A stretch of 12,884 bases of DNA, from assembly GCA_963977445.1 (NCBI GenBank), contig CAXBPH010000203.1, forward strand, positions 1 through 12,884, written 5' to 3'. Origin of the DNA: an uncultured bacterium. Its GTDB lineage: Bacteria > Hydrogenedentota > Hydrogenedentia > Hydrogenedentales > JAEUWI01. The position numbers were made by a program, and so were the translations under genes. Shown piece after piece: positions 3-12,789 of the stretch (its first letter is position 1; each line of letters begins with the position of its first letter). The notes under the pieces are model-generated. The model saw only the letters and a list, made by a program, of their open reading frames with translations, ran no database searches and had not been told where the DNA came from.

Positions 3-380
3 AAGAAAATCCGTCAAGCCACGTCGACGGATAAGGGCATCACCTGGGGCGAAGTTACCCCCATGGACATACCCAATCCCGGTTCTTCCGTGGATGTGGT
101 CGTTTTGGCCAACGGACACTGGGTCCTGTTGTGCAACGACACCACTGAGGGCCGACATATCGTAACCGCCTACCTTTCCGAAGACGAGGGACTCACCTGG
201 CCCCTATCACGTCAACTCGAATCTTTCGAGCCCGATGCCGGGTCCGGTTCCTATTTTTCTGTGATTCAGAGCAAGGATGGTCTGATTCACGTCACCTACT
301 CCTACAAAAACGAAAAAACGCCCGGTTCCAGCATCAAACATGTCGCCTTTGAAGAAGCCTGGATCACCGGGGGTAATTAA
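3..380 (+). CDS. BNR/Asp-box repeat protein (exo-alpha-sialidase-like beta-propeller), C-terminal part; 5' end lies outside the window
   Basis: Frame is open from base 3 (KKIRQATSTDKGITWGEVTPMDIPNPGS...). It has two Asp-boxes (STDKGITW, SEDEGLTW), the PNPGS motif and the SYxSVIQxxDGxIHVTYS...IKHV ending typical of BNR_2 proteins. Confidence 0.88.
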   Translation, partial: KKIRQATSTDKGITWGEVTPMDIPNPGSSVDVVVLANGHWVLLCNDTTEGRHIVTAYLSEDEGLTWPLSRQLESFEPDAGSGSYFSVIQSKDGLIHVTYSYKNEKTPGSSIKHVAFEEAWITGGN

Positions 381-800: not shown

Positions 801-1217
801 ATGGAGCTATCGACACTGGCCCGGGGCGAAACCTGGATGAATGAGGAAGAATCGGCGTTGAACCGCCAATTCGTGCAGGGCGTAGGCGAATTGCTACACG
901 ACCGGGGCGTGGTGCTGAATCCACTCCTCACACTCCGCATCAATGATGTGCTCGTGTCCTGGTTGCTGGTCCGCCGCATGGAACGCAACCTCGCAGAAGT
1001 GGACTCCTCGGCAGAACTGCCCGAAGCACCCCAAACCACACCCGCCCAGGCCGATGCCATCGGAAAGAGCCGGGAACGTCTCCGCAAATCCATCAAGGAC
1101 CTGGAAGACTATTGCGCACGGGCAGGCACACCCATCGACACGGGACTTGCCGACGCCATGAAACCCGTCATCCAGCAGGTCCAGGGTAAGCACCCCTTCT
1201 TCTCCACAGAGCCATAA
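801..1217 (+). CDS. Hypothetical helical protein (138 aa), possible terminase small subunit
   Basis: ATG at 801 preceded by AGGGGGA at 791-797. GC3-rich codons. Two amphipathic helices (LRINDVLVSWLLVRRMERNL; ADAIGKSRERLRKSIKDLEDY) joined by a P/A/E-rich linker. The coding call is solid; the TerS function is inference. Confidence 0.75.
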   Translation: MELSTLARGETWMNEEESALNRQFVQGVGELLHDRGVVLNPLLTLRINDVLVSWLLVRRMERNLAEVDSSAELPEAPQTTPAQADAIGKSRERLRKSIKDLEDYCARAGTPIDTGLADAMKPVIQQVQGKHPFFSTEP

Positions 1218-1472: not shown

Positions 1473-1646
1473 AATTGGTGGGTTCAGTTTGTTTTGATGG
1501 AGCGAGTCTTTGTTGGGACTCAAGAAGCTCAGTGGGGTCTAAAATGGGCCGCACGGAAGGGAATCTCGTGTGCGTGCCCGTTTTAGTGCGATTACCCTGA
1601 TCCGACACGCTTGAAACGCTGCCGGGCGATATGCGATAGATCAGGT

Positions 1647-2084
1647 ATGAAATATCTTACCCTACTCGCGCTGTGCGCCCTCTTCGTCCTCCCCGGTTGT
1701 GCCTCCCACCCCAAGACCACGGGCAAACCCGTCGTCAAGGAAGTGCTGACCACGGGCTATTGTAAGTGTGGTCGCTGTTGTAACTGGACCCACACGACCT
1801 TCCTGCGACGCACCGTTATCAAGGACGGCCCCAACAAGGGCGACCGAAAGAAAGTGCGGAAGACAGCCAGTGGTAAAATGGCCAAGAAAGGCCACACCAT
1901 CGCCGCCGACCCGAAGATCTACCCCTTTGGCACGGTCATGTACATTCCTGATTACGGTTATGGCGTCGTAGAAGACGTGGGCGGGGCCATCAAGGGCGAA
2001 CACATCGACCTGTACTTCGGAAGTCACGAGGCCGCGCTGAAGTGGGGCAAACGGCGAAAGACCATCCAAATCTGGCGCCCGTAA
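1647..2084 (+). CDS. 3D (Asp-Asp-Asp) domain lipoprotein, MltA-like putative peptidoglycan lytic transglycosylase
   Basis: Signal peptide with lipobox LPGC. Motifs TTGYC, TASG, TIAADPKIYPFGTVMYIPDYG, EDVGGAIKGEHIDLYF and ALKWG include all three conserved Asp. Confidence 0.92.
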   Translation: MKYLTLLALCALFVLPGCASHPKTTGKPVVKEVLTTGYCKCGRCCNWTHTTFLRRTVIKDGPNKGDRKKVRKTASGKMAKKGHTIAADPKIYPFGTVMYIPDYGYGVVEDVGGAIKGEHIDLYFGSHEAALKWGKRRKTIQIWRP

Positions 2085-2101: not shown

Positions 2102-3019
2102 TCAGGGGGCCATGTAGGTCGCCAGGAATTGCTTGGTCAGGGTGGCCAGATCCTGGCCCTCAAAGAGCCCTTCCCACGCGCCGTGACTTTCGCCCGAAAT
2201 GGGATAATAGGCCACAGGGATACCGTTGGCATTACAGGCATCCCGAATTTCCAGCGCCGGGGCTAGCGAAATACCAACGGTAAAATCGTTGGTTCCGTGG
2301 AAAATCATTACGGGGGGATCGGACGGATCGAAGGCATTCACCACGGGGGCGGCACTTCCCCAGCAATCGATGATAACTTCGGGACGGGCATTAACGCCGG
2401 GATTATTTTTCGCCGGCACGGGAAAAGCTTCGCCATCGCTGCTGAAGAGGGCGTCGCCCGTTAATCCGGCGGCCAGCGCGGCAAAGGCACCGGCGGACTC
2501 ACCCCACAGCGCAATGCGATTCGGCTCGACCCGCAGGGAACTCGCGTTGGCCCGCACATAACGCATGGCCGTCTTGGCATCCACAAAAGACGCATGCATG
2601 GCCGAGCGCAAATCCAGGGCGTCAAAGAGGAACTCCGAAGTATCCGGCGTCCAATCCTTGGGCGCGGGTGGCTCATCGCCCTTGAGGCGGTAATCAATCA
2701 AAAAACAGACGTAACCCTCGAGGGCCAGTGCGTTGGCCTGGATCAGCAGGTTTTCGTCTTCTTTGGTGCCCCCTTCAAAGGAGCCCCCGTGAATCATGAC
2801 GACGGCCGGGCGATTTTCTTCGACCCCTTCAAGTTCCACCAGGTCAAATTTGAGGTCCACCAGGGTGTAACCCGCCTCCGTCGTGTTGGCCACGTTGCCC
2901 TGACCATAAACCAGGTCTACGGTGCGTATTACGCCGGGGGACAGGGGGCCGGGACAGCCGCTCATCAAGATGAGGGCGACAGGCAACGCGAACACGCTGA
3001 GAAACTTCACAAACTTCAT
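2102..3019 (-). CDS. Alpha/beta hydrolase lipoprotein (HSL/BD-FAE-like carboxylesterase)
   Basis: Lipobox LMSGC, oxyanion HGGSF, IDYRL, nucleophile elbow GESAG, HGTND (Asp) and ESHG (His). RBS AGGAG upstream of the ATG. Confidence 0.93.
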   Translation of the reverse strand: MKFVKFLSVFALPVALILMSGCPGPLSPGVIRTVDLVYGQGNVANTTEAGYTLVDLKFDLVELEGVEENRPAVVMIHGGSFEGGTKEDENLLIQANALALEGYVCFLIDYRLKGDEPPAPKDWTPDTSEFLFDALDLRSAMHASFVDAKTAMRYVRANASSLRVEPNRIALWGESAGAFAALAAGLTGDALFSSDGEAFPVPAKNNPGVNARPEVIIDCWGSAAPVVNAFDPSDPPVMIFHGTNDFTVGISLAPALEIRDACNANGIPVAYYPISGESHGAWEGLFEGQDLATLTKQFLATYMAP

Positions 3020-3127
3020 GAGACCTACTCCTTGGGTGTCTATTCTGCTTCCTAGTATAAACCATCGCGCCCGACGATGGCAGCGGCAGCCCGAGGGGTC
3101 TCCTCAACCAGGCGAAAGGCCCTACCT

Positions 3128-4588
3128 ATGACCACGAAACTACCGACGCTGGCCCAACTGCAGAATCGCGGACTCAACGAGTCGGACGCCCAACGCTGGC
3201 TTGCCCTGCAAGACCGCGTCACCTTTGTGGAGACCTTCTTTGCCGATCGCGCAGGCACCCCATGGGAGGTCCGGGCCTATCAGCGGGGCTCGCTCAATTC
3301 CCTCGCTGCGCGGAAGGTTCATTGCGACGGCCGCGACGTGGGCAAGACGACCGAGATCGAGGCCATCGCCTGCTGGGCCATGGTGGCCTGCCCCGATTCG
3401 GAGATGCTGATTGCGACGCAAACAGAGAATCAGCTTTTTCCCCTCATGAATCGCATTGCCCGGCGCTTTGAAAATACGCCCGCCTTCGCACCTTCCCTGA
3501 TAGAAATGAAACGGTCCCCCTCGTGGTATTTTCGCTTCTCCAATGGCTTTGTTTTGTGGGGGCGTATCGCCGGCCCCCGAGGCACCAATTTTCAGGGCAT
3601 GCACGTGGACTGGCAAATTGTGGATGAGGCCCAGGAGATGACCGACACCGCCTGGGGTGAGCTTTACCAGGCCCTCAATGGGGGTGGACGCCGCTGGGTC
3701 TATGGTGTGCCCAATGGCCTGCGAAATACCTTCTATCGCATGAGTCAGATGCCCGACACGGAGCAATACAACTGGCCCAGCACCATCAACCCCGATTTTG
3801 ATGGTGCCAAAGAACGAGAGCTGACCCTCCTCTATGGTGGACGGAATACGCCGGGTTATATGCATCGTGTCTTGGGACAGCACGGTGCACCCATGCATGC
3901 CGTCTTCTCCCTCGACGAATATCTCCAATGTGTGGAGGAGGCCATCGAATTTGAAGATGTCGTACTGCGGGAAGAAGACCCCTTCGACGGACCCCGTGAT
4001 GTGGTGCCGGGCGATTATTATCTCGGCTGCGATTTGGGCTACGCCCGGGACCCCTCCGAGTTCGTCGTCTACCGCAGCGAATCGCCCCACTTCACCAACG
4101 TGCTTCGTGTGCACCTGGAGGGCGTCAACTATGCACGGCAACAGCAGATTATCGTAGACCTCGATCAGGCCTACGACTTTCGCGGTATTGGCATCGACGC
4201 TGGCAATAGTGGACGCGCCGTGGCCCACCAGCTCATGGCCCTGGGGGAAGACTGGTGCGACAAAATCCAGGCCTTCGAGTTTGGCGGCACCATGGAATTA
4301 CAGCCCCTGCCCGACGGCCGCCTTGTCCGTCGCCGGGTGAAGGAGTTCATGACGGAACTGCTGCAACGCCGCATGAACGAAGGCACCATCCGCTTCCCCG
4401 TGTTGGCCGACCGAGAGAGCCAATACGCCGCCCACACCTACGCCGTTGGGGCCTCCGGACAGATCGTCTATGAAAAAGGCAACGACCACCTCATCGATGC
4501 TGACCGCTGCGCCATCCTGCGCCACTATCGGGACCATCTCGAAGAGAGCGCACCAACCTGCCCCGGCATCGGGCTGGTGGGATTCTGA
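3128..4588 (+). CDS. terL: Phage terminase large subunit (ATPase plus RNase H-like nuclease), 486 aa
   Basis: Q-motif RAYQ, Walker A GRDVGKT (3329-3349), Walker B WQIVDE (3611-3628), motif-III region YGVPNG, and nuclease acidic motifs LGCDLG..DPS, GIDAG and NDHLID (4481-4498). ATG 3128 has GAAAGG upstream; an alternative start is 3077. Confidence 0.9.
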   Translation: MTTKLPTLAQLQNRGLNESDAQRWLALQDRVTFVETFFADRAGTPWEVRAYQRGSLNSLAARKVHCDGRDVGKTTEIEAIACWAMVACPDSEMLIATQTENQLFPLMNRIARRFENTPAFAPSLIEMKRSPSWYFRFSNGFVLWGRIAGPRGTNFQGMHVDWQIVDEAQEMTDTAWGELYQALNGGGRRWVYGVPNGLRNTFYRMSQMPDTEQYNWPSTINPDFDGAKERELTLLYGGRNTPGYMHRVLGQHGAPMHAVFSLDEYLQCVEEAIEFEDVVLREEDPFDGPRDVVPGDYYLGCDLGYARDPSEFVVYRSESPHFTNVLRVHLEGVNYARQQQIIVDLDQAYDFRGIGIDAGNSGRAVAHQLMALGEDWCDKIQAFEFGGTMELQPLPDGRLVRRRVKEFMTELLQRRMNEGTIRFPVLADRESQYAAHTYAVGASGQIVYEKGNDHLIDADRCAILRHYRDHLEESAPTCPGIGLVGF

Positions 4589-4605: not shown

Positions 4606-4970
4606 GTCGGGGACTGCACCGACCTCGCATACTTGATTCGAGCGGTAAAGACGGCCTGGTGCCAGAATGCGTGTCGGTAGGCTGGAACACGTAGAAGATC
4701 GGGGCTGTCCCCCCGAGGGCAAATCCCCCTCAGGGGGTCTACAAAACACCCACCACCGTGCCACGCGATCCGACAACGTCGGTTCGTGTGTATGAAGCAA
4801 CTAAAACGAGAAACAACACAAAAAAATCATACGGGCGTTAACAAACCATGCACCAAACAATAAGATTGACACAAACCCACACTCCATGGGACGCACACGA
4901 ACCGACGTTGTCGGATCGCGTGGCACGAAAAAGTTCCTGCTCTTAAACGTTTCGGAGTGCAGTCCCCGAA
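4606..4970. repeat. Three copies of a short TCGGGG(A)CTG...CCGA hairpin (REP-like)
   Basis: TCGGGGACTGCAC at 4607-4619 and its exact reverse complement at 4957-4969, plus the variant TCGGGGCTGTCCCCCCGA at 4699-4716. Each copy forms a local hairpin. Confidence 0.7.
4757..4927. repeat. Perfect 34-bp inverted repeat (REPIN/MITE-like), GTGCCRCGCGATC family, copy pair 2
   Basis: CGTGCCACGCGATCCGACAACGTCGGTTCGTGTG at 4757-4790 and its exact reverse complement at 4894-4927, around a 103-bp A-rich spacer between convergent genes. Confidence 0.92.
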
Positions 4971-6077
4971 CTACTCCGGCACGCTGTAGTCGATGAGCCG
5001 CACGTCCACTTCGTCGCGACTGAGGTGCACCGCTACATCGGGCGCTCGTTGACCATCGATGGTAATCGGTTCCGCATCGTAGCGGGCATAGGGTTCGTCG
5101 TCGCAGAGAAACGACAAGGTGTACACCCCCCGCTCGACAAAGGCCGAGGCTTTTCCTTTTGGCGGCACCACCAGGTCTTGTCCCATTTTCCCTTGGCGCA
5201 GACCCGCCGTCATGGTCACGTCGGAGTCGTTCAGCAGACGGATTTCATGGCGGCCCTCGGCCAGTGACCGGGTAAATTCGGGTAAACGGGCATGGGGTTG
5301 ATAGGAGCGGGATTTCGCACCCGCCCCCCCGTCATTTCCCCGTCGTCCCGCACCACCCACGGTGATGGTCGGCCCGGCGCTCTGCTCTGCCGTCCCTTCC
5401 GAAGGCGTTGGGCCCGGCGCGACCCATCGGATGGGCTTGCGAACCCCTTCTTCCTTGACGGCATCCGGCATCTGCCCAATGCCCATGGGTTGGGAATTGG
5501 CCGAGGTGACAGCGCGCTCCAAGGGCACAAAAACACCGGGGGCGATTTCGGCCACCGGGCGTCCGTCGATTTCAGCCGTTGGCGGGGCTGGTGTCGGGGA
5601 TTCCGTCCTGGGCGTGGCTACCTGGGCGGTCCGCAGTCGCCCCGAAGTACGCACCTGTCCCCCGTCAAAGCGCACCGTAACGCTGCTTCCGATATCATCC
5701 ACCCAACGGAGTACCTCTACCTGTCCCCCATCGCCGCCAACACGGAGACCCTCCCAGCCCACCAGGCCTTCTACCGCTTCCCGGGTCATCCCCCGTTGAA
5801 TCTGCGCGACGACGGATGGCGTAAGCTCGTGACGAATTTCTCCGGTGTCGGAACGCTCAAGCGCCGGGACAGGCTCCACCGCCGTGTCGGGCAACGCCCC
5901 GTCGGTCTCGACGTTGACGACGGCAGGAGGCTCAGCCGATTCCACTACCGTAATGTCCGGCGCATCGTGCTTCGACGTTTCCTGGCCACAGCCGACAAGC
6001 ACGAGCCCCCCCAGAAGCAACCCCAAAAAGGGTTTCACGCCGACGTACAGCCCGTTCGTTTTAGTTGGATTACGCAT
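4971..6077 (-). CDS. Hypothetical lipoprotein with a SmpA/BamE- or BLIP-like small domain, Pro/Gly-rich linkers and a C-terminal beta-rich domain
   Basis: Hydrophobic stretch with lipobox LVGC. Segment QIQRGMTREAVEGLVGWEG...LRW...SVTVRFDGGQV matches the IxxGMTxxxVxxLxG pattern. 368-aa ORF. Confidence 0.8.
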   Translation of the reverse strand: MRNPTKTNGLYVGVKPFLGLLLGGLVLVGCGQETSKHDAPDITVVESAEPPAVVNVETDGALPDTAVEPVPALERSDTGEIRHELTPSVVAQIQRGMTREAVEGLVGWEGLRVGGDGGQVEVLRWVDDIGSSVTVRFDGGQVRTSGRLRTAQVATPRTESPTPAPPTAEIDGRPVAEIAPGVFVPLERAVTSANSQPMGIGQMPDAVKEEGVRKPIRWVAPGPTPSEGTAEQSAGPTITVGGAGRRGNDGGAGAKSRSYQPHARLPEFTRSLAEGRHEIRLLNDSDVTMTAGLRQGKMGQDLVVPPKGKASAFVERGVYTLSFLCDDEPYARYDAEPITIDGQRAPDVAVHLSRDEVDVRLIDYSVPE

Positions 6078-6178
6078 GCTTCAGTATCCCGCCCTTCCGA
6101 AAGGAATGCAAGCTTCCGAAGTCCATCGACACCGCGCAACTTGCCCCCGGTTGCCTTGAATCGGTAGGCTGCTGGTCT

Positions 6179-7375
6179 ATGGCACCCCAATCCAAGGAGA
6201 TTCTTTTGCGCACCATTCTGAATGTAGTCCTGTTGTTTTTGACTCTTGCGGCAACCCTGGCCCGTCCCGCCGCTGCCGACACGCCCTATACGCTGTGGAC
6301 CGGCACCTCGCCCTTCCCCCCAGTCGCCGCAATTCCGCCAGTACCCGGCGTGACCCATCATGTTATCCATGAGGGCGAAACGGGCGCCTATCAGTTTCTA
6401 CTCGGCACCGCCCTCGCCTTCCACGAGGGCACTCTATGGGCCAGTTGGGGCAACAGCCTCGTTGATGAAAATGACGATGGCTCCATCATGGGCGGGCGGG
6501 CCTCCCGCGATGGGGGCACCACGTGGGGCCCCTTTCAAATCATTGCCCCCGGCGCGCCCGGGCCCGACTCCCACAGCCATGGGGTTTTCTTGAACCACAA
6601 CGACGAACTCTGGGCCTACGCGGCACGGGCCGACTATATCGCCGGTGGAAAAGCCTACCCCAAGCTGCGCGCGGAAGCCTACCGCCTTGAGGACAATGCC
6701 TGGGTATCGAAAGGTATCGTCGCGGAGGGCCTCTTCTGGCCCCTGACCGAGCCCCAACCCATGAAAGACGGCAATTACATCATGGGTGGGCTCATCGTGG
6801 ACCCTGAAAACGGTTGGCCCGATGCGGAAGGGGCCGTGGCTATTTCGGCGGGGGACGATGTGACGAAATGGACCCCCGTAGAAATCCCGCGCGTTCCCGG
6901 CGACAAGGTCTGGGGCGAGACGTCGCTCATCGTAGAAGACGACCTGATTACCGCCATCGTCCGCTATGGAAGCAAGGCCGTGGCGCTGGTGTCCTTCAGC
7001 GAAGACTTCGGCAAAACCTGGACCACCCTCCGGGACAGCAATCTGCCCAACGCCAACTCCAAGCCCTACGCCGGCACACTAAGCACGGGGCATTGGTATG
7101 CCCTTGTCAATCTGGAGAATCGAGACACCCTGGCCATCGTCATCGGCGAACCCGGCGCAAGGACATTCTCCAAGGTGTGGACCATACGAACAGGCAAATC
7201 CCACGTACCACGAAATCCGGGCGGCGGCAAACATCCCCAATGGTCCTACCCCTATGCCGTGGAACACGACGGCAAGCTCTTTGTAGGCTATTCCATTTCG
7301 AAAGAAGATTGCGGCCTGTCGGTGCTCCCCATCGAAAACCTTATCGCCCCGGGCGTGGAGTTATCCAATGAATGA
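6179..7375 (+). CDS. Secreted BNR/Asp-box (sialidase-like) beta-propeller glycosidase
   Basis: Signal peptide ending ARPAAA-D, Asp-boxes SRDGGTTW and SEDFGKTW, SKPYAG and a C-terminal WSYPYA motif. The likely start is ATG 6179 rather than 6065. Confidence 0.87.
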   Translation: MAPQSKEILLRTILNVVLLFLTLAATLARPAAADTPYTLWTGTSPFPPVAAIPPVPGVTHHVIHEGETGAYQFLLGTALAFHEGTLWASWGNSLVDENDDGSIMGGRASRDGGTTWGPFQIIAPGAPGPDSHSHGVFLNHNDELWAYAARADYIAGGKAYPKLRAEAYRLEDNAWVSKGIVAEGLFWPLTEPQPMKDGNYIMGGLIVDPENGWPDAEGAVAISAGDDVTKWTPVEIPRVPGDKVWGETSLIVEDDLITAIVRYGSKAVALVSFSEDFGKTWTTLRDSNLPNANSKPYAGTLSTGHWYALVNLENRDTLAIVIGEPGARTFSKVWTIRTGKSHVPRNPGGGKHPQWSYPYAVEHDGKLFVGYSISKEDCGLSVLPIENLIAPGVELSNE

Positions 7376-7862
7376 ACTCGAAAAAGGGCTGGAAATCGCC
7401 GCCCCCCTTGACATACAGCGCGATGCGCTACTGCGTTTTCAAAGCCAGATAGGGGAATGGGGAATCTCTCTACCGGATGTGCGGCCTCTTGTGCTCGACT
7501 TTGGCCTCCAGGATTTCAATACGACGGGGCTCATCGAATACTGGATCGCCAACGAGATGGAAGCCGGGTATTGCGCGAAGTACCTCTTCGTCTTTGACGG
7601 CCAGAGCTGTCCCCTCCACCACCACAAGACCAAGCACGAGACTTTTTTCATCGTGCAGGGCCTGGTGGACGTCACCTATGGCGGCGCCCACCATCACCTC
7701 CACCCCGGCGATGTGCTCCCCATTGAGGTGGGGCAGGTACACGGCTTCACGGGCATGGGACCTGCCCTGCTACTTGAGGTCTCCAAGCCCTGCGTCATCG
7801 ACGACAATTACTTTGAAGACACGCGCATACCTATCGGCGGCAATTACCAGGCGGAAGGCTGA
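7368..7862 (+). CDS. D-lyxose/D-mannose family sugar isomerase (cupin)
   Basis: DFGLxDFxxTGL, GYCAKYLFVFDGQSCPLHHHKTKHETF, LHPGD, HGF and EVS...DNYFED are the metal-binding cupin signature of D-lyxose isomerases. Overlaps the upstream gene by 8 nt (ATGAATGA). Confidence 0.9.
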   Translation: MNELEKGLEIAAPLDIQRDALLRFQSQIGEWGISLPDVRPLVLDFGLQDFNTTGLIEYWIANEMEAGYCAKYLFVFDGQSCPLHHHKTKHETFFIVQGLVDVTYGGAHHHLHPGDVLPIEVGQVHGFTGMGPALLLEVSKPCVIDDNYFEDTRIPIGGNYQAEG

Positions 7863-7865
7863 GAC

Positions 7866-10800
7866 TCAGTCCTTAAAAGCAATTTTCGCAAGATAGATGC
7901 TCGTCTTTTCTTCGTGGGAAGAATAGTAGGTCATCCACAACACGTCATCGTGCCAGGCAAAACCGGGGTAGCTCGTGTCTCCGCCGCTGGGCAGGGTCAA
8001 CACGGGCTTCAGATGGCTCGCTGTCATATAGGCCAGTTCCGTCGTGGCCTTTCCAACGTAGTTGCGGTACCCCGCCCACATGGAGCCATCGGGCAGACGG
8101 ATAAAGTCCGGCCCACCCGCGCGGATACCGGTGTTGCGCCAGTTCCAATCGGTGTAGGGCGGGAGGCTGGTGCCGATATAGGCCCCTTTGTCGCTCTCCT
8201 CCCGACGTGCGAGGAGCATCATGGTGTCGTCGGGCAAGAAGCGCGCGGTGACTTCGAAACGATTTCCCGTAATATCGAGGGTCGTGCGAATGCGAAAGTT
8301 GATGCCGTCGTCGCTCGTGTACAGGACCAGGCTGCGCGGTTTGTCTTCCCCGATCACGTAATGATTCGAGACGCCCCAGGCCGTTCCGTCCCGCCAGGTC
8401 ACCCGCCACAACCAGTCGCCTTCGCTACACACCCGCTGGAGTGCAGACCAGTCGGTGCCATTCTTTGAGAAGGCGACCCGAGGCTGACGGCCCACCAATT
8501 CTTTGCCCTCATAATCCGAGCCGCCCATCACCAGCATGAGCCGCTTGTCCGGGGTGACGGAAATCTTGGGATCCCTGAGGTCGATGCTGTCTTCCGTGAG
8601 CAGTCCGCAGGATTCCCACCCGTCGCCGTCTTTGGAGCGAATCACCCGGATAACGCCATCGCTCCCCACGTGGTTTTCCGCTTCACGAAAGGTCACATAG
8701 AAGTAGTCGCCGTGGCGGATGATATCGGTGAAGGCATTGTGGCCCCCCTGGTCCCATATTTTGGTGACGGACAACACTTCCGGTGTTTTGGGCAAGGGCG
8801 GCACAAAAGGTGGACGTTGTATTGCGTTGGGCTTGTCGACCCACGCAGCATCACCGTAGAGGCCCACGTCACTCAGATCGATTGGCTGGAAGCCCGTGCC
8901 CAGCGCCGGTGAGTCGGCGGCGAGGGTGAAGTTACCCGATTCGGCATCCACAAACCCGGGATTGGCGATGATGCTGTGGCGGTCATGCCCCGCCGCCTGC
9001 CACTCCGTAAAGGTCTTTTCTTTGAAGGTCACGGGACGGCCACTGGTGTCCCAATACGTATTGTGGTCCATGGTGAAATTATTGTTCTGCCAGTTGCTCC
9101 CCAGGAGTTGGCCATTGTTGAAGTAGACAATGTTTCGCTCGAAGAAGAAGGAGTTGTGCTCCTCGTTTCGGGTGCGAATGATATTCGGCGTATGGGAGTA
9201 GGCGAAGACATTGTTCACCACCCGATTGTCCTTGCCATAGTGCTGATGGAAGCCGCCCGTGCGTGTGTTGTAGACCACGTTGTTTTCCAACACGATATCC
9301 GTGCTGCCCTCATCGGTGTAAAGTCCCCAGCCGCCATAAAGCCGGGGATGAGAGATCACGTCGTGAATCAGGTTGTGCTTTACTTCGGTCCCGGGCGAGA
9401 CACCGAGCAGATAGACCGCACCCATATCGTTGAGCTGGCCCCGACCGATGTGGTGAATATGGTTGTCATTAATACGATTGTGGTGGGCCGAACTGGGCTG
9501 GTAACCCCAGGACCACCCCACCGAAACGCCCGTATAGCGGAAGTCGGCGATTTCATTGTGGGTCACGTCGTTGTGGGAAGCACGGCCAATCCACACGCCC
9601 ACCGCCTCCCGCCAGACCCGGCCCCCATCGTGAAGGTAGTTGTTGTCGATGATATTGTGGTCCGACGCTTCTGCGGGCGTAGCGGGCGAATTCACCTCGC
9701 CAATGCGCACGCCGCCGGCGCCAAGATCGGTGAGTTCGTTGCGTCGCACGACCACGTGCTGGGAGCCCGCCCGCAACCAGAGACCATAGGTGCCCACATT
9801 GGCGATGCGGCAATCTTCAATGGTTATGTGCCGCGCACCGGTCGCTTCGAAGGCGGCATTCACCCGGGCCGCCGCCTGAGAATCACTGTGCCCCTCGTCG
9901 GATATGGGAAACTCGCAGTGGCGGAGATCCAGCTGCTGAAATTGGAGGTGGGTCACAAATTTTTCTGATGCGGGGTCGCCCTGGAGGACAATCAATTGAC
10001 GGGCCTGCGGAATGGTGGCCGTGAAGCCGTCCAGCGTTTCGCCGGGCATGGGTACGTAGTAGAGTTTGCCGACAGCATGATCCCCATACCACTCGCCGGG
10101 CGCGTCCAGCCCCTCAAAGAGATGCTCGATGTAATAGCGCTGGTCCTGCTGCCAGCGACAGAATTCATAGCGCGAGGGCCCCGTGAATTCGATAACGTGC
10201 TTGTCCCAATCCACCTGCTTAACCCGCATGAGCGAGGTGGTCCAGGAATTGAAGGCCACCACGATGGCGTTGCTGTCCAGGGACTTCCACGGCTGGATGT
10301 CGCCTTCGCGAAACATGAAAGCCTGGTTGCTCTTGACGTCCTTGCCCTCTTTATCTTTTACCATCACCGGGCCAGCGGTGTAGAAAAAATCGGAATCCGG
10401 TGGTTCATCACCTGCCGGGTTGGCCGCATTGGGCGTTCGGGCCGGGGTGCGCCGTTCGTCACCGACCCAGAGCTCGTGGAAATTGGTGTCCACCCCGTCG
10501 GGCACCTGGGCCACCCAGAAATCACCTTCTTGCTGCCAGTTGCCCACCGCCACGCCGCCGGAAAGAATCGGGTGCTCGTCGGGATAGGCCACATAGCGGA
10601 TGGGTGCTGCGGCCGTGCCCGAATCTTCCGGCGTAAAGACCACGGGGGCCGCCACGGGATAGGTTCCCCCACGAAGATAAACCTGGACCCCTTCGGATAG
10701 CCCGCCGTCTGCCTTGATCGTGCGGATACGGTCGCGCGCACCTTCCAGACTGTGCAGCGGGCCGTCCGACCCGTCGGCGTTGGGGCTGGCGATCGCACCC

Positions 10801-10919
10801 GACCAGTCGTCGTTACCGGTGGGGGAAACAAAGAGGCTCATCTCGGCATGGGCACCGAGGGTGATCAGGCAAAGAAAGACAACAAGGACATTGCGAAGGG
10901 CAGCGGCAACAAAATTCAT
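7866..10919 (-). CDS. Secreted GH141-like right-handed beta-helix protein fused to a C-terminal BNR/sialidase-like propeller (1017 aa)
   Basis: Start ATG 10919 with GGAGA upstream and signal peptide AHA-E. N-terminal FVSPTGNDDWSG...YLRGGTY, LDAPGEWY, YTGVSVGWSW, DMGAVYLLG and GLYTDEGS. A Pro-rich linker precedes HNAFTD...FRE, SKDGDGW, DLRDPK, WLWRVTW, SDDGINF and GDTSYPG. Confidence 0.9.
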   Translation of the reverse strand: MNFVAAALRNVLVVFLCLITLGAHAEMSLFVSPTGNDDWSGAIASPNADGSDGPLHSLEGARDRIRTIKADGGLSEGVQVYLRGGTYPVAAPVVFTPEDSGTAAAPIRYVAYPDEHPILSGGVAVGNWQQEGDFWVAQVPDGVDTNFHELWVGDERRTPARTPNAANPAGDEPPDSDFFYTAGPVMVKDKEGKDVKSNQAFMFREGDIQPWKSLDSNAIVVAFNSWTTSLMRVKQVDWDKHVIEFTGPSRYEFCRWQQDQRYYIEHLFEGLDAPGEWYGDHAVGKLYYVPMPGETLDGFTATIPQARQLIVLQGDPASEKFVTHLQFQQLDLRHCEFPISDEGHSDSQAAARVNAAFEATGARHITIEDCRIANVGTYGLWLRAGSQHVVVRRNELTDLGAGGVRIGEVNSPATPAEASDHNIIDNNYLHDGGRVWREAVGVWIGRASHNDVTHNEIADFRYTGVSVGWSWGYQPSSAHHNRINDNHIHHIGRGQLNDMGAVYLLGVSPGTEVKHNLIHDVISHPRLYGGWGLYTDEGSTDIVLENNVVYNTRTGGFHQHYGKDNRVVNNVFAYSHTPNIIRTRNEEHNSFFFERNIVYFNNGQLLGSNWQNNNFTMDHNTYWDTSGRPVTFKEKTFTEWQAAGHDRHSIIANPGFVDAESGNFTLAADSPALGTGFQPIDLSDVGLYGDAAWVDKPNAIQRPPFVPPLPKTPEVLSVTKIWDQGGHNAFTDIIRHGDYFYVTFREAENHVGSDGVIRVIRSKDGDGWESCGLLTEDSIDLRDPKISVTPDKRLMLVMGGSDYEGKELVGRQPRVAFSKNGTDWSALQRVCSEGDWLWRVTWRDGTAWGVSNHYVIGEDKPRSLVLYTSDDGINFRIRTTLDITGNRFEVTARFLPDDTMMLLARREESDKGAYIGTSLPPYTDWNWRNTGIRAGGPDFIRLPDGSMWAGYRNYVGKATTELAYMTASHLKPVLTLPSGGDTSYPGFAWHDDVLWMTYYSSHEEKTSIYLAKIAFKD

Positions 10920-10991
10920 GATTGAGATATCTCCATTTCGGGCTGAGCTAGCCATTATGAAGAGACGGTTGCTGCCGTGCAAACCACTTTA

Positions 10992-11008
10992 GAAATCGAT
11001 TCGATTTC
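10992..11008. promoter_or_regulatory. Palindromic candidate operator upstream of the GH141-like gene
   Basis: Perfect dyad GAAATCGA-T-TCGATTTC in an AT-rich stretch about 75 bp upstream of ATG 10919. Confidence 0.4.
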
Positions 11009-11134
11009 AATGCACGTTTAAATAGGTGAAAGCTGACCTATATCAAATCCAACGCGTTAATTTCGGCAGCGTACGCAAGCGCCTGCAAAGGAAAAACTTA
11101 CCAGCGGCTTTGCCACTGTCACCTAAAGAAGCCC

Positions 11135-11261
11135 TTGACCATTGGGAGCGCAGGTCTCGGACGCGCCTAAGGAGGGCAGGCCGCCTGCCACGGGCCGAAG
11201 GCACGTAGTTTTTACGTCTTCGACGTAATGCAGACGGGCCGCCTGCGCTCCCAATGGTCAA
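11135..11261. repeat. Inverted REP doublet, GGAG-type (TGGGAGCGCAGG) family
   Basis: Perfect 20-bp inverted repeat TTGACCATTGGGAGCGCAGG (11135-11154 and 11242-11261). The right copy continues into the hairpin GCAGGCGGCCCGTCTGC, and a third degenerate copy GGAGGGCAGGCCGCCTGCC lies inside. Confidence 0.8.
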
Positions 11262-11325
11262 ATTCTGAAAGCTGGAAACCGATTGTCGTGAAAAATACCC
11301 GAGATGAGGATCCTCCTTTTCTCAC

Positions 11326-11370
11326 AAAAAAAGATTGGCCGGGCGGTCGTTGCAACCGTCCGGCCAATCT
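11326..11370 (-). terminator. Intrinsic terminator-like hairpin
   Basis: 16-bp stem AGATTGGCCGGGCGGT/ACCGTCCGGCCAATCT with one mismatch and a 7-nt loop. It is followed on the minus strand by T7 (A-run 11326-11332 on plus). Confidence 0.75.
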
Positions 11371-11386
11371 AACTTCTTCCGGTGTG

Positions 11387-11701
11387 TCAGTGCGGAAGCC
11401 AGGCTGGACTTCGGCGCGGAAGAAGGCGGAACCTGCCTGTATTTGGGTAGGTTGGGCAGCAGTGATGCGGCAGGTTCCTGGCAGTGAGTCGAACCACGTG
11501 TGTGACACGCGGAGGCATGGGCAAATGGAAACCGGCTGTCTCGGCAAGGTCCATGGGAGCGTTCCATGTGCCTTGTTCAACTGCGTTGGGCGCTGTAGCG
11601 CGCGCGGAAACAGCCGGGAAGTGTGCGATGGACCATGCCGACAGGGAGTCGTGGTGTCTGTACAAACGCTGGTCGTGATAGGTTTGAGTCGATTCCGACA
11701 T
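11387..11701 (-). CDS. Possible small hypothetical protein or leader peptide (104 aa); the region may instead be a structured RNA
   Basis: ATG 11701 with GGAAG upstream and a stop 16 nt before the terminator stem. No recognisable domain, His/Pro/Arg-rich, weak codon bias. Confidence 0.35.
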   Translation of the reverse strand: MSESTQTYHDQRLYRHHDSLSAWSIAHFPAVSARATAPNAVEQGTWNAPMDLAETAGFHLPMPPRVTHVVRLTARNLPHHCCPTYPNTGRFRLLPRRSPAWLPH

Positions 11702-12117
11702 GGTCCAAACTTCCATCGGCCCGTAGGCCTTTGTCAGCGCAAACTGTGCGCTGTTAATTGGATAAAGCATAGCCCATGCCAACAGTGACCCCGGGCGAAT
11801 CGAAACGCTCAAATCCTTTACTTAAGGGCACTTATGCAACAACATGGCGAAAAACCTCGTTACCGTCTGTGGAGTTCCATCACTCACGATGCACACTTGT
11901 GCCCACAACAAAAGTGCGCACTGAACAGAAAGGGCGGAGACACAATATGAAGTATATGCAACGAATGGGCCTGCCAAATGTATAGTTTTTGTCATAGAGT
12001 TGCGATTTGCCCTGTTCTCACGTACCATTCAGGTGGTGGGTTCCGTGTGTCATCCCCCCCGGATGGCCGCGGCGCAGCACTATATATGATTTGATAAAAT
12101 GAGGTATCCCAAGAACA

Positions 12118-12789
12118 ATGTCTACCCATGTTGAATACTCCATCGGCGAGGAAATTGCCAACAGCATTACCCACGGCATCGGTGCCCTCCTGAGCGTGGC
12201 GGCCCTGACCATGATGGTCGTTTATGCGGCCATGGCGGCCGACCCGTGGTGCATCGCCAGTGTAAGCGTCTTTGGTGCGACCCTGGTCATCATGTATCTT
12301 GCGTCCACCCTCTACCACGCCTTCCCTCAGCCTCGCTTGAAGAAGCTCTTTCGCAAATTTGACCATTGCGCCATTTACCTGCTCATTGCGGGCACCTACA
12401 CCCCCTTCCTGCTGGTGAATCTGCGGGGCCCCTGGGGCTGGAGCCTCTTTGCCGTCATATGGACGGTGGCGGCCATGGGATGCCTGTTCAAGTTTTTCTT
12501 TCTCGACCACGGTGCCCATCTGAAATGGTGGGACAGGGTTTCAACAGCGCTCTATGTCGCCATGGGCTGGATCATTGTCATTGCCCTGAAGCCGACCCTG
12601 GAATTGGTGCCCCACCCCGCCCTGCTGCTCATGGCTCTCGGTGGTCTTGCCTACACGGGCGGTACCATCTTTTACCTGTGGCAGCGCCTCCCCTACAACC
12701 ACGCTATCTGGCACCTCTTTGTATTGGCAGGCAGCACCTTTCACTTCTTCGCCGTGTTCTTCTTCGTGGTGCCCGCCGCAACGGTTTAG
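12118..12789 (+). CDS. trhA: Hemolysin III family (PAQR) membrane protein, YqfA/TrhA
   Basis: EEIANSITHGIG, STLYH, DHCAIYLLIAGTYTP, YVAMGW and HAIWHLFV with seven hydrophobic segments. GAGGT upstream of the ATG. Confidence 0.96.
   Translation: MSTHVEYSIGEEIANSITHGIGALLSVAALTMMVVYAAMAADPWCIASVSVFGATLVIMYLASTLYHAFPQPRLKKLFRKFDHCAIYLLIAGTYTPFLLVNLRGPWGWSLFAVIWTVAAMGCLFKFFFLDHGAHLKWWDRVSTALYVAMGWIIVIALKPTLELVPHPALLLMALGGLAYTGGTIFYLWQRLPYNHAIWHLFVLAGSTFHFFAVFFFVVPAATV

Follow-up and report, generated by a model that had tools for sequence, protein, structure and literature searches.

The gene at 3128-4588 in a 12,884-nt stretch of Hydrogenedentota DNA (the window) is, as judged from its sequence, an intact homologue of the phage terminase large subunit (TerL) with all ATPase and nuclease catalytic residues. 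We consider it probable, at roughly 60%, that TerL drives DNA packaging for a scattered element, domesticated long ago, which would resemble a gene transfer agent (GTA). The gene is conserved under purifying selection, it is linked to a small upstream gene (F2), and portal and capsid genes are co-conserved in the same phylum-level records. The features of the window are collected in Table 1.

Table 1. Features of the window in the vicinity of the terminase gene
Feature	Position	Strand	Basis or location
F2, small all-helical protein in the position of a terminase small subunit	801..1217	+	Family HMM, AF2, complex model
F3, 3D-domain (MltA-like) lipoprotein	1611..2084	+	Pfam 3D (E=3e-20); lipobox LPGC read from sequence
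Esterase (BD-FAE / alpha-beta hydrolase), host-type	2102..3019	-	Pfam BD-FAE (E=1e-23)
TerL-like packaging ATPase-nuclease (486 aa)	3128..4588	+	phrog_2, Foldseek, invariant catalytic residues
Perfect inverted repeat (34-nt arms, A-rich spacer of 103 nt)	4757-4790/4894-4927		TerL-F6 intergenic region
F6, convergent lipobox protein	4971..6077	-	No Pfam match at E<=0.01

The open reading frame encoding TerL spans 3077-4588, with ATG 3128 as the likely start, as in the stored protein and its homologues; the residue numbers given here follow the 486-aa numbering. Among PHROGs the protein matches phrog_2, 'terminase large subunit' (E=7e-22). The AF2 model, in which residues ~160-260 show low confidence, gives 54 PDB matches in Foldseek at E<=1e-3, with T4 gp17 as the best one (9e-17). 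Nearly all the matches listed are large terminases (T4 gp17, D6E, HK97 and Sf6 are included), along with complexes that contain one. The ATPase domain matches P74-26 TerL in a PDB profile (E=6e-4) and also in Foldseek, and the nuclease domain matches those of G20c and P74-26 with TM values of 0.73-0.76 (0.76 for G20c). Confirmation by the Pfam terminase families, proposed in the first-pass annotation, was not obtained, as Terminase_6N (E=0.13, 12.3 bits, cutoff 22) and Terminase_6C (E=0.21, 12.0 bits, cutoff 22.6) are both under the curated thresholds, and a NCBIfam search with TerL gave no match.

The residues expected of a terminase ATPase are all present, in motifs which we take to be the Q motif (Y51-Q52), Walker A (CDGRDVGKT, 66-74), Walker B (VDWQIVDEAQE, 160-170) and the coupling motif (YGVPNG(L/I/M)RN). 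The C-terminal acidic residues of an RNase H-like nuclease are found as D302, D357 and D457/D459. Across the aligned homologues, Y51-Q52 and G72-K73-T/S74 are each invariant in the 77 rows that cover them, D166, E167, D302 and D357 are kept in all 81 rows and D457/D459 in 80 of 80, and the coupling motif is found in 81 of 81. The full-length reading frame with intact motifs and nuclease acids, described from the letters of the sequence in the first-pass annotation, is thus confirmed, and so are the host-like codons reported there (GC3 of 0.715, within the 0.63-0.76 of the other genes; RSCU r=0.93).

TerL is separated by 108 nt from the divergently oriented esterase, which agrees with the short upstream region recognized earlier. 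The downstream repeats and convergent lipoprotein gene of that reading correspond to the 34-nt inverted repeat and F6. The repeat, when compared with shuffled sequences, gives 2 matches that are reached in 0 of 200 shuffles; it is missing from all 80 related loci, is without an Rfam match, and the region 4757-4927 probably does not belong to the system. In the window as a whole, neither an Rfam family nor a tRNA was detected. The surroundings of TerL are glycan-degradation and membrane genes (Pfam, 11 ORFs), and these ORFs include no portal, capsid, protease, tail or integrase gene; the HMMs of the head-module genes also gave 0 matches in the window. The initial description of an orphan gene is just partly right, and TerL is not stand-alone, because a conserved small partner gene, F2, is located 1.9 kb upstream, with F3 and the esterase placed between the two.

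This arrangement is shared by a part of the relatives (the counts for F2, F3, F6 and the esterase across loci were obtained by HMM searches over all stop-to-stop ORFs). F3 occupies a place in the interval from F2 to TerL in 31 of 81 loci, in one clade, and its presence in the neighborhood requires only 3 changes on the TerL tree, while the esterase adjoins TerL in 21 of 81 loci. F6 is confined to the 7 closest sources, including the window. In the locus L054 it sits between TerL and the portal gene, and this copy is matched weakly by a BLIP-like family of PHROGs (E=1e-6).

In the case of F2, the longest ORF begins from GTG 747, and ATG 801 is the likely start. In 53 of 81 loci the family HMM has a match that is upstream of TerL and shares its strand; in 24 it lies at most 60 nt from the TerL match. 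The AF2 model (pLDDT 79.7) comprises 4-5 helices and shows no PDB fold match at E<=1e-3; no known small terminase (TerS) was matched by sequence or fold. Searches in Pfam, NCBIfam and PADLOC gave no match, PHROGs nothing better than E=0.015 across the 22 members of the family, and the Atlas weak leads (scores 0.86-0.88). As neither a fold, a PHROG nor a strong Atlas match is available, the putative TerS role is based on the position of the gene and on the complex model. The F2-TerL model scores 0.71 (0.73, 0.71 and 0.67 in the separate runs) and the best control 0.03; this mark is attained by 116 of 157 solved complexes and by 2 of 215 mismatched pairs. At least 92% of the contacts agree between the runs, with a partner pLDDT of 66 or more. 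In the model, F2 is predicted to bind the ATPase domain of TerL, with the interface on F2 formed by residues 130-154 (156-aa reading). The binding of TerL by the C-terminal segment of TerS is a known arrangement in phages, as stated in a review (PMC11841831), and for this reason the passing score may partly reflect a likeness to solved complexes.

Of the 80 related loci analysed (from 70 assemblies, out of 118 confirmed copies in one-genome-per-species contigs), 5 carry a portal gene no more than 10 kb from TerL, with the head module 0.7-8.2 kb away from TerL. That this module is near TerL in just 5 of 80 loci, with portal, capsid and tail genes absent from the window, counts against the reading of TerL as the motor of a scattered element. 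Host genes separate TerL from the module in three of the five loci (L042, L047 and L054), and in L045, L054 and L015 portal and capsid directly adjoin TerL or come close to doing so. The portal gene is recognized by Pfam Portal_Mu above cutoff and by phrog_3753 (E~5e-46). In L054 and L045, the genes that come after it encode a protease-like protein (phrog_16951; Atlas scores of 0.92-0.94 with viral clusters in which Peptidase_S78 is found), a virion structural protein (phrog_4588) and an HK97-type major head protein (matched by phrog_3922, E~2e-51, and above cutoff by Pfam Phage_capsid_4). Dit-like and hub-like proteins close the series, and the module as a whole comprises portal, protease-like, decoration-like, capsid, Dit-like and hub-like genes. 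In L015, L042 and L047 the module genes are found in part. The 537-579 aa protein that comes after the Dit-like one contains a Staphylococcal-nuclease-like stretch (Pfam SNase, 23.6 bits with a cutoff of 21 in L054) and has a weak Phage-tail_3 match. Between the capsid and Dit-like genes there is no tail tube or tape measure gene, unlike in the related Bacillus phage CUBc25, which weakens the case for a complete particle.

Across records labelled Hydrogenedentes, the portal and capsid genes are conserved in a pattern like that of TerL. The database homologues number 397 for the portal (best 120 of 397, 68-99% identical), 360 for the capsid (best 120 of 360, 67-100% identical) and 389 for TerL (best 120 of 389, 66-100% identical). 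The co-occurrence of the parts in the same genome is seen directly in the five loci, and is also indicated by locus tags in three MAGs, in which TerL and a capsid gene share the same prefix on different contigs. The multi-locus layout of TerL and the head genes is directly observed, and the early suggestion that TerL is one locus of a scattered GTA-like system gains support, since relatives hold portal, capsid and tail-tip genes that are split from TerL by host genes.

Among the organism-named TerL homologues (n=9), 8 are from Hydrogenedentes and 1 is from 'Nitrospiraceae'. In species-representative genomes, 118 copies were confirmed by tblastn (53-86% identity); the gene is therefore not strain-specific. 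Nearly all of these copies are titled Hydrogenedentota, a restriction that is partly by construction, because the genome scan was seeded by two peptide patterns taken from the same clade as TerL. Of the 80 locus titles, 16 bear a different label (13 Nitrospirota, and one each Latescibacterota, Armatimonadota and FCB group). The dN/dS ratio of TerL is 0.031-0.213 in 22 of 22 pairs, equal to or below that of the adjacent esterase (0.065-0.20; F3 shows 0.04-0.24), and dS is of the same order as in the flanking genes, in agreement with the retention under selection proposed at the outset. In the TerL tree the 80 rows form one clade with a long stem (SH-aLRT 93), and the gene neighborhoods follow this tree. 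The TerL gene set appears, from these sequences, to have been inherited vertically in Hydrogenedentota. The dN/dS values, the single clade, the neighborhood states and the 360-397 homologues are in line with the long-term inheritance under purifying selection that is characteristic of a GTA.

The same data make it very improbable that TerL belongs to an ordinary prophage remnant, or to a currently mobile phage or satellite that is common in these bacteria and without host function. Against this reading stand the dN/dS far under 1 in every pair, with dS like that of the flanks, the invariant catalytic residues, the host-like codons and the neighborhoods tracking the gene tree. TerL does resemble phage proteins (Microcystis phage MACPNOA1 reaches 31% identity, and a mangrove-soil phage record, in which the match is annotated as terminase large subunit, 24%), but the phage collections hold nothing above 31%. 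Also in favor of this reading, a second or third TerL copy is present in 9 of 70 assemblies, so that TerL is not strictly single-copy (a point which the first-pass annotation proposed to test), and one copy (L077) is broken into three pieces. On the other hand, host genes are interspersed, and no integrase is found among the 31 neighbor genes scanned around the head module, which are ordinary host genes. Neither integrase nor replication or lysogeny genes occur among the Pfam-scanned ORFs (11 in the window, 107 + 31 in related loci). None of the loci examined lies within a complete prophage, in which genes for integrase, regulation, replication and lysis would form one uninterrupted block together with the full structural set.

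A paralogous TerL clade of 9 rows is without F2, and so is L077, a third copy that is fragmentary. Genes of the defence type (TIR_2, KAP NTPase, SLFN/AlbA_2, AEP-TOTE with ResIII, BrnT/BrnA and FRG) surround 6 of the 7 scanned loci of this clade and L077. One further gene found near the paralogous TerL, F16, has no Pfam or PHROG match; a relation of F16 to F2 or to the portal was considered and rejected, as the profile comparison shows no similarity. The defence-type surroundings of these F2-less copies, together with the finding that neither the window nor 75 of 80 related loci has a head gene within 10 kb, would be compatible with TerL and F2 acting as a capsid-free host ATPase-nuclease, for example in defence by interference with phage packaging, a co-option raised in the first-pass annotation. 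For the copy in the window we find no support for it and regard it as improbable: this copy falls in the F2-linked main clade and outside the paralogue clade, PADLOC gave 0 families at E<=0.1 for TerL, F2, F3 and F6, and portal and capsid are equally conserved in the same phylum-level records, next to TerL in the contiguous or nearly contiguous loci described above.

In the reading that we prefer, a phage head-and-packaging set would have been domesticated long ago and passed down vertically in Hydrogenedentota, while host genes came to separate its parts. TerL would serve as the ATP-driven DNA translocase and headful nuclease of this set, and F2 as a small-terminase-like adaptor, which would use its C-terminal helix to dock on the ATPase domain at the N terminus of TerL. 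The F2-TerL complex may then dock on a portal and an HK97-type procapsid encoded elsewhere in the genome and package DNA into particles in the style of a gene transfer agent (viriform). The formation of the particles, their DNA content and gene transfer by them are what we infer from this scheme. A domesticated particle made for a purpose other than gene transfer, such as killing or delivery or the packaging of specific DNA, is unlikely, even if it would account equally well for the conservation, the dN/dS values and the portal and capsid pattern. The unusual tail part, in which the Dit-like protein is followed by the SNase-bearing one with no tube or tape measure nearby, would suit it; the retention of both ATPase and nuclease residues in TerL argues against it, and a killing particle is further disfavored by the portal and capsid genes of the set, which are missing in tailocin-type killing particles. 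A more detailed version of the domestication scheme is put forward tentatively, and we hold it to be possible rather than probable: Hydrogenedentota would keep an independently domesticated, functional GTA, with F2-TerL apart from the portal-protease-capsid-Dit-hub genes and with a reduced tail, and in one sub-lineage a duplicated TerL would have taken on a role independent of the capsid, in neighborhoods of the defence type.

In the literature on terminase, prophage, capsid and gene transfer agents of Hydrogenedentes/Hydrogenedentota, no description of this element was found. GTA particles package pieces of host DNA shorter than the genes that encode them and transfer these pieces. The GTA lineages known so far are no more than a handful, every one found by experiment. 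Detection by sequence is blocked by encoding at several loci and by independent origins, according to a review (PMC11841831). If our interpretation is true, a phage head-and-packaging set under strong selection across an uncultured phylum would be an independent case of virus domestication, and would show the extent of scattering that is possible while each gene stays conserved. On the practical side, software that calls prophages or viruses will give these genes a viral score in every MAG of Hydrogenedentota.

In comparison with known systems, the set resembles the RcGTA-type GTAs of Alphaproteobacteria, for which PMC11841831 and the abstract of PMC10883770 describe phage-derived terminase, portal, protease, capsid, Dit and hub genes. 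The hosts have retained these genes throughout a large clade, where they are under purifying selection and lie at more than one locus. The small terminase of RcGTA has no recognisable DNA-binding domain, which can be compared with F2. The host phylum and the protein families are different (here the portal is of the Portal_Mu type and the capsid of the Phage_capsid_4 type), and no alphaproteobacterial record is present among the matches of any search made here. The Hydrogenedentota set also differs in being without a tail tube or tape measure beside the head genes, and in that TerL is apart from these genes in most loci. VSH-1 of Brachyspira shares the division of the GTA genes among chromosomal loci (as given by the title of Stanton et al. 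2009, cited in PMC11841831); it is of an unrelated lineage and has experimental particle and transfer data (PMC11841831), whereas the Hydrogenedentota set, in contrast to both VSH-1 and RcGTA, has been read from genomes.

In respect to phage large terminases (T4 gp17, D6E, HK97, Sf6 gp2, P74-26/G20c), TerL has the same two-domain fold and catalytic motifs, with full-length Foldseek E values of 1e-15 to 1e-17, yet the identity in the structural alignments is 13-21%. Unlike them, it is below the Pfam cutoffs, chromosomal, host-like in its codons, distributed phylum-wide and mostly separated from the portal. PBSX of Bacillus subtilis is a defective prophage-like element, with phage structural and packaging genes that are retained by the host and no autonomous replication. 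The retention of such genes is common to PBSX and the Hydrogenedentota set. Elements of the PBSX type are contiguous and confined to close relatives, whereas the Hydrogenedentota set is scattered and is kept among genomes whose TerL proteins differ by up to ~40%.

The reading frame of the terminase large subunit gene (TerL) was confirmed, with the ATG used in the homologues and in the stored protein P0001 as the start, giving a protein of 486 residues. In Pfam no match is found at E≤0.01, and at relaxed thresholds Terminase_6N (E=0.13), GpA_ATPase (0.19) and Terminase_6C (0.21) all stay below the cutoff; the Terminase_6N/6C confirmation that the first-pass annotation had proposed was not obtained. 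NCBIfam and PADLOC searches with TerL returned nothing. With Pfam and NCBIfam silent, TerL is identified from its PHROG, phage tblastn, PDB profile and AF2 fold matches. It matches phrog_2 (‘terminase large subunit’) with E=7e-22 and four further TerL PHROGs more weakly. Ten phage records are matched in all by tblastn. The best are Microcystis phage MACPNOA1, whose matched product (30.8% identity, 87% of the query covered) is annotated ‘hypothetical protein’, and Caudovirales GX15bay, whose matched product (24.2% identity) is annotated as terminase large subunit. The P74-26 TerL ATPase domain is matched in the PDB profile search (E=6e-4). The AF2 model (mean pLDDT of 73.8, residues about 160–260 poor) gives 54 PDB matches at E≤1e-3, with T4 gp17 first (9e-17) and D6E and HK97 next; nearly every row listed is a large terminase or a complex that includes one. 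The TM score to the G20c nuclease domain is 0.76. The catalytic residues are intact, as had been seen from the sequence, and invariant across the related rows: K73 in 77 of the 77 covering the position, D166, E167, D302 and D357 each in 81/81, and D457 and D459 in 80/80. The host-like codon usage also holds (GC3 of 0.715 vs 0.63–0.76 for the other window genes; RSCU r=0.93).

TerL is conserved across a phylum and is not the strain-specific insert whose finding would have spoken against the first-pass annotation. Among 5.8 billion proteins 389 homologues were found (the best 120 with 66–100% identity and 464–531 residues); eight of the nine with organism names are Candidatus Hydrogenedentes and one is ‘Nitrospiraceae’. 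In a one-genome-per-species scan (185,579 species) 118 copies were confirmed by tblastn, and the best 80 loci, from 70 assemblies, were analysed; the scan used two peptide patterns from TerL's own clade, and the taxonomic restriction is partly by construction. The NCBI phylum label of these 80 is Hydrogenedentota for 48, Nitrospirota for 13, Latescibacterota and Armatimonadota for one each, and none parsed for 17 (several ‘Candidatus Hydrogenedentes bacterium’, some ‘uncultured bacterium’, one ‘FCB group’). Titles of Nitrospirota type (L009, L012–L015, L018, L024, L032, L035, L058, L066, L071, L080), Latescibacterota (L023), Armatimonadota (L033) and FCB group (L043) are carried by 16 loci. 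Their TerL rows nest among Hydrogenedentota rows at short tree distances, and the odd labels are probably due to MAGs being labelled inconsistently, not to transfer. Among 1.84 billion cluster representatives, a profile search gave 1264 relatives at E≤1e-3; over the best 150 the bit score declines steadily, starting at 632 and ending near 125. The tree places the 80 Hydrogenedentota-type rows in a single clade (SH-aLRT 93) with a long stem, apart from twelve of these representatives, which are more distant.

The dN/dS ratio of TerL (Nei-Gojobori) is well below 1, a check named beforehand, in 22 of 22 pairs (0.031–0.213), including those with unsaturated dS (0.10–0.66). Its neighbours show similar or higher values (esterase 0.065–0.20, 3D-domain lipoprotein F3 0.04–0.24, small helical protein F2 0.07–0.54). 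The dS of TerL is of the same order as that of the flanking genes (0.49 vs 0.36–0.81 for L001–L002).

TerL is not strictly single-copy, one of the points that were to be checked: a second TerL is present in nine assemblies, one of which (CAVUWV01) has a third, fragmentary copy. The latter (L077) matches in three pieces with 53% identity, is possibly a pseudogene, and was left out of the tree as too fragmentary. The nine second copies form their own paralogue clade (SH-aLRT 100), keep all catalytic residues and show dN/dS of 0.08–0.12 in the two pairs tried. F2 and F3 are absent upstream of them in the HMM search of the loci, and F16, a conserved protein with a Cys/His-rich N-terminus, lies near six. 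Defence-type surroundings were found in 6 of the 7 second-copy loci scanned, with none in L079. The paralogues thus offer a lead for the alternative that the protein was co-opted as an ATPase-nuclease, for example against phage packaging; the lead concerns them and not the window gene.

Positions of features in the window and in related loci
Locus	Feature	Position	Strand	Assignment or remark
Window	BNR_2 protein	3–380		Pfam; sialidase-like
Window	F2	747/801–1217	+	no known family
Window	F3, 3D-domain lipoprotein	1611–2084		Pfam
Window	esterase	2102–3019	-	Pfam
Window	TerL	3128–4588	+	ORF 3077–4588
Window	inverted repeat	4757–4927		34 nt, perfect; 103-nt A-rich spacer; between TerL and convergent lipoprotein gene
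Window	F6, lipobox protein	4971–6077	-	no known family
Window	BNR_2 protein	6065–7375		Pfam; sialidase-like
Window	cupin/lyxose-isomerase-like protein	7368–7862		Pfam
Window	GH141-like beta-helix protein	7866–10982	-	Pfam
Window	lower G+C (0.52–0.55)	11000–12000		ORFs overlapping, unconvincing
Window	HlyIII	12118–12789		Pfam
L054, L045	protease-like protein			phrog_16951 E~1e-31 to 3e-35; Atlas 0.92–0.94, viral clusters, some with Peptidase_S78
L054, L045	235-aa protein	L045 15120–15833; L054 15698–16405		between protease-like and decoration-like genes
L054, L045	virion structural protein (decoration-like)			phrog_4588
L054, L045	major head protein			phrog_3922 E~2e-51; Pfam Phage_capsid_4 above cutoff
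L054, L045	137–160 aa protein			no assignment; between capsid and Dit-like
L054, L045	Dit-like protein			phrog_5577 and phrog_33; Pfam SPP1_Dit below cutoff
L054, L045	537–579 aa protein			Staphylococcal-nuclease (SNase)-like stretch; weak Phage-tail_3 match
L060, L061, L064, L065, L069, L070, L072, L079, L080	second TerL copy	near 10000–11400 in most		
Second-copy loci	defence-type neighbours			TIR_2 with Hypoth_Ymh; KAP NTPase; SLFN/AlbA_2 with AEP-TOTE and ResIII; BrnT/BrnA; FRG domain; dCTP-deaminase-like
L077	third TerL copy	9950–11515		

In the window the neighbours of TerL are host-type genes according to Pfam. The two BNR_2, the cupin/lyxose-isomerase-like and the GH141-like genes give it a glycan-degradation setting, and L002, L004 and L006 share with the window a BNR_2 gene lying upstream of F2. 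None of the 80 related loci has the inverted repeat, and Rfam gives no match to it; in the stretch of lower G+C neither a tRNA nor an Rfam match was found.

ORFs were called in the 80 loci and the window (81 sources) and clustered, followed by an HMM re-search over all stop-to-stop ORFs. TerL had been described as an orphan, but in 53 of the 81 sources an F2 homologue lies upstream on the same strand, and in 24 of these its match ends ≤60 nt from that of TerL. F3 lies between F2 and TerL in 31 sources, within a 36-row clade (SH-aLRT 99) that holds the window, and the layout of the window, with F3 and the opposite-strand esterase inserted, is found in 21. As few as three changes explain the presence of F3 on the TerL tree (present in 31 rows, absent from 40, not scorable in 9); TerL has therefore kept its neighbourhood. 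The sequence of F2 changes quickly (mean column identity of 26% vs 74% for TerL), and its all-helical model (pLDDT of 79.7) has no PDB fold match; the protein has no PHROG match. Atlas leads are weak (scores of 0.86–0.88, Terminase_4 in 16% and 56% of the members of two clusters). The predicted F2–TerL complex, modelled with our own alignments, supports binding of F2 to TerL: it scores 0.71 (runs 0.73, 0.71 and 0.67; best control 0.03), with contact agreement between runs of at least 92% and partner pLDDT of at least 66. Of 157 solved complexes 116 reach this mark, as do 2 of 215 mismatched pairs. In the model, residues 130–154 of F2 lie on TerL 5–28, 84–91, 119–123, 137–141, 161–162 and 186–188. 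TerS proteins usually bind TerL through a C-terminal segment (PMC11841831), and the pass may for this reason partly reflect likeness to known complexes. The same paper describes GTA small terminases without a recognisable DNA-binding domain.

One neighbour family is a portal protein (Pfam Portal_Mu 31–40 bits, cutoff 23.9; phrog_3753 E~5e-46). Its gene lies less than 10 kb from TerL in 5 of the 80 loci: at about 0.7 kb in L015 (inverted), 1.4 in L045, 2.0 in L054 (a complete chromosome), 6.1 in L042 and 8.2 kb in L047. The gap holds F6 in L054, and ordinary host genes in L042 and L047 (e.g. melibiase/GH31-type glycosidase, TPR, CAAX protease, GDPD, GT2). In L054 and L045 the portal is followed on the same strand by the genes of the table, in the order listed. 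Only the L045 copy of the 235-aa protein gives a Pfam match, to LigD_N (DNA ligase D 3'-phosphoesterase), which at E=0.0012 stays below the cutoff. No integrase was found among the 31 neighbour ORFs scanned at head-module loci, and none of the head-module HMMs matches the window, in agreement with the first reading of it. Portal and capsid have 397 and 360 matches in a large protein database (best 120 at 68–99% identity, and at 67–100% with 342–352 residues, respectively); those with names are overwhelmingly Hydrogenedentes, the same pattern as for TerL, and nothing nearer than 29% (portal) or 34.5% (capsid) was found in phage collections. Three MAG locus-tag prefixes are common to a TerL and a capsid protein on different contigs. 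In the related Bacillus phage CUBc25 the capsid and distal tail genes are separated by a tape measure and some eight small genes, whereas L054 (18447–21431) and L045 (17567–20422) have a single small gene between capsid and Dit-like; no tail tube or tape measure was found near these genes, and the tail would therefore be reduced or encoded elsewhere.

We put at roughly 60% the probability that TerL is the motor of a domesticated particle-forming system. A phage head-and-packaging set would have entered the ancestor of these bacteria, lost its autonomy, and then been passed on vertically under selection, with its genes becoming separated through rearrangements and insertions; the window fits as one fragment, with F2, two inserted genes and then TerL. 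The scattered GTA-like option raised earlier is retained in its dispersal, given the selection and the portal and capsid genes lying apart from TerL in relatives, and is corrected as regards a stand-alone TerL, as F2 lies upstream in 53 of the 81 sources. In the literature, with subscription journals mostly outside the scope, no description of a Hydrogenedentota TerL/head-module element was found. Gene transfer would be a putative function of such particles. As a GTA-like viriform the element would clearly interest the field, and its proposed history fits the description of a gene transfer agent.
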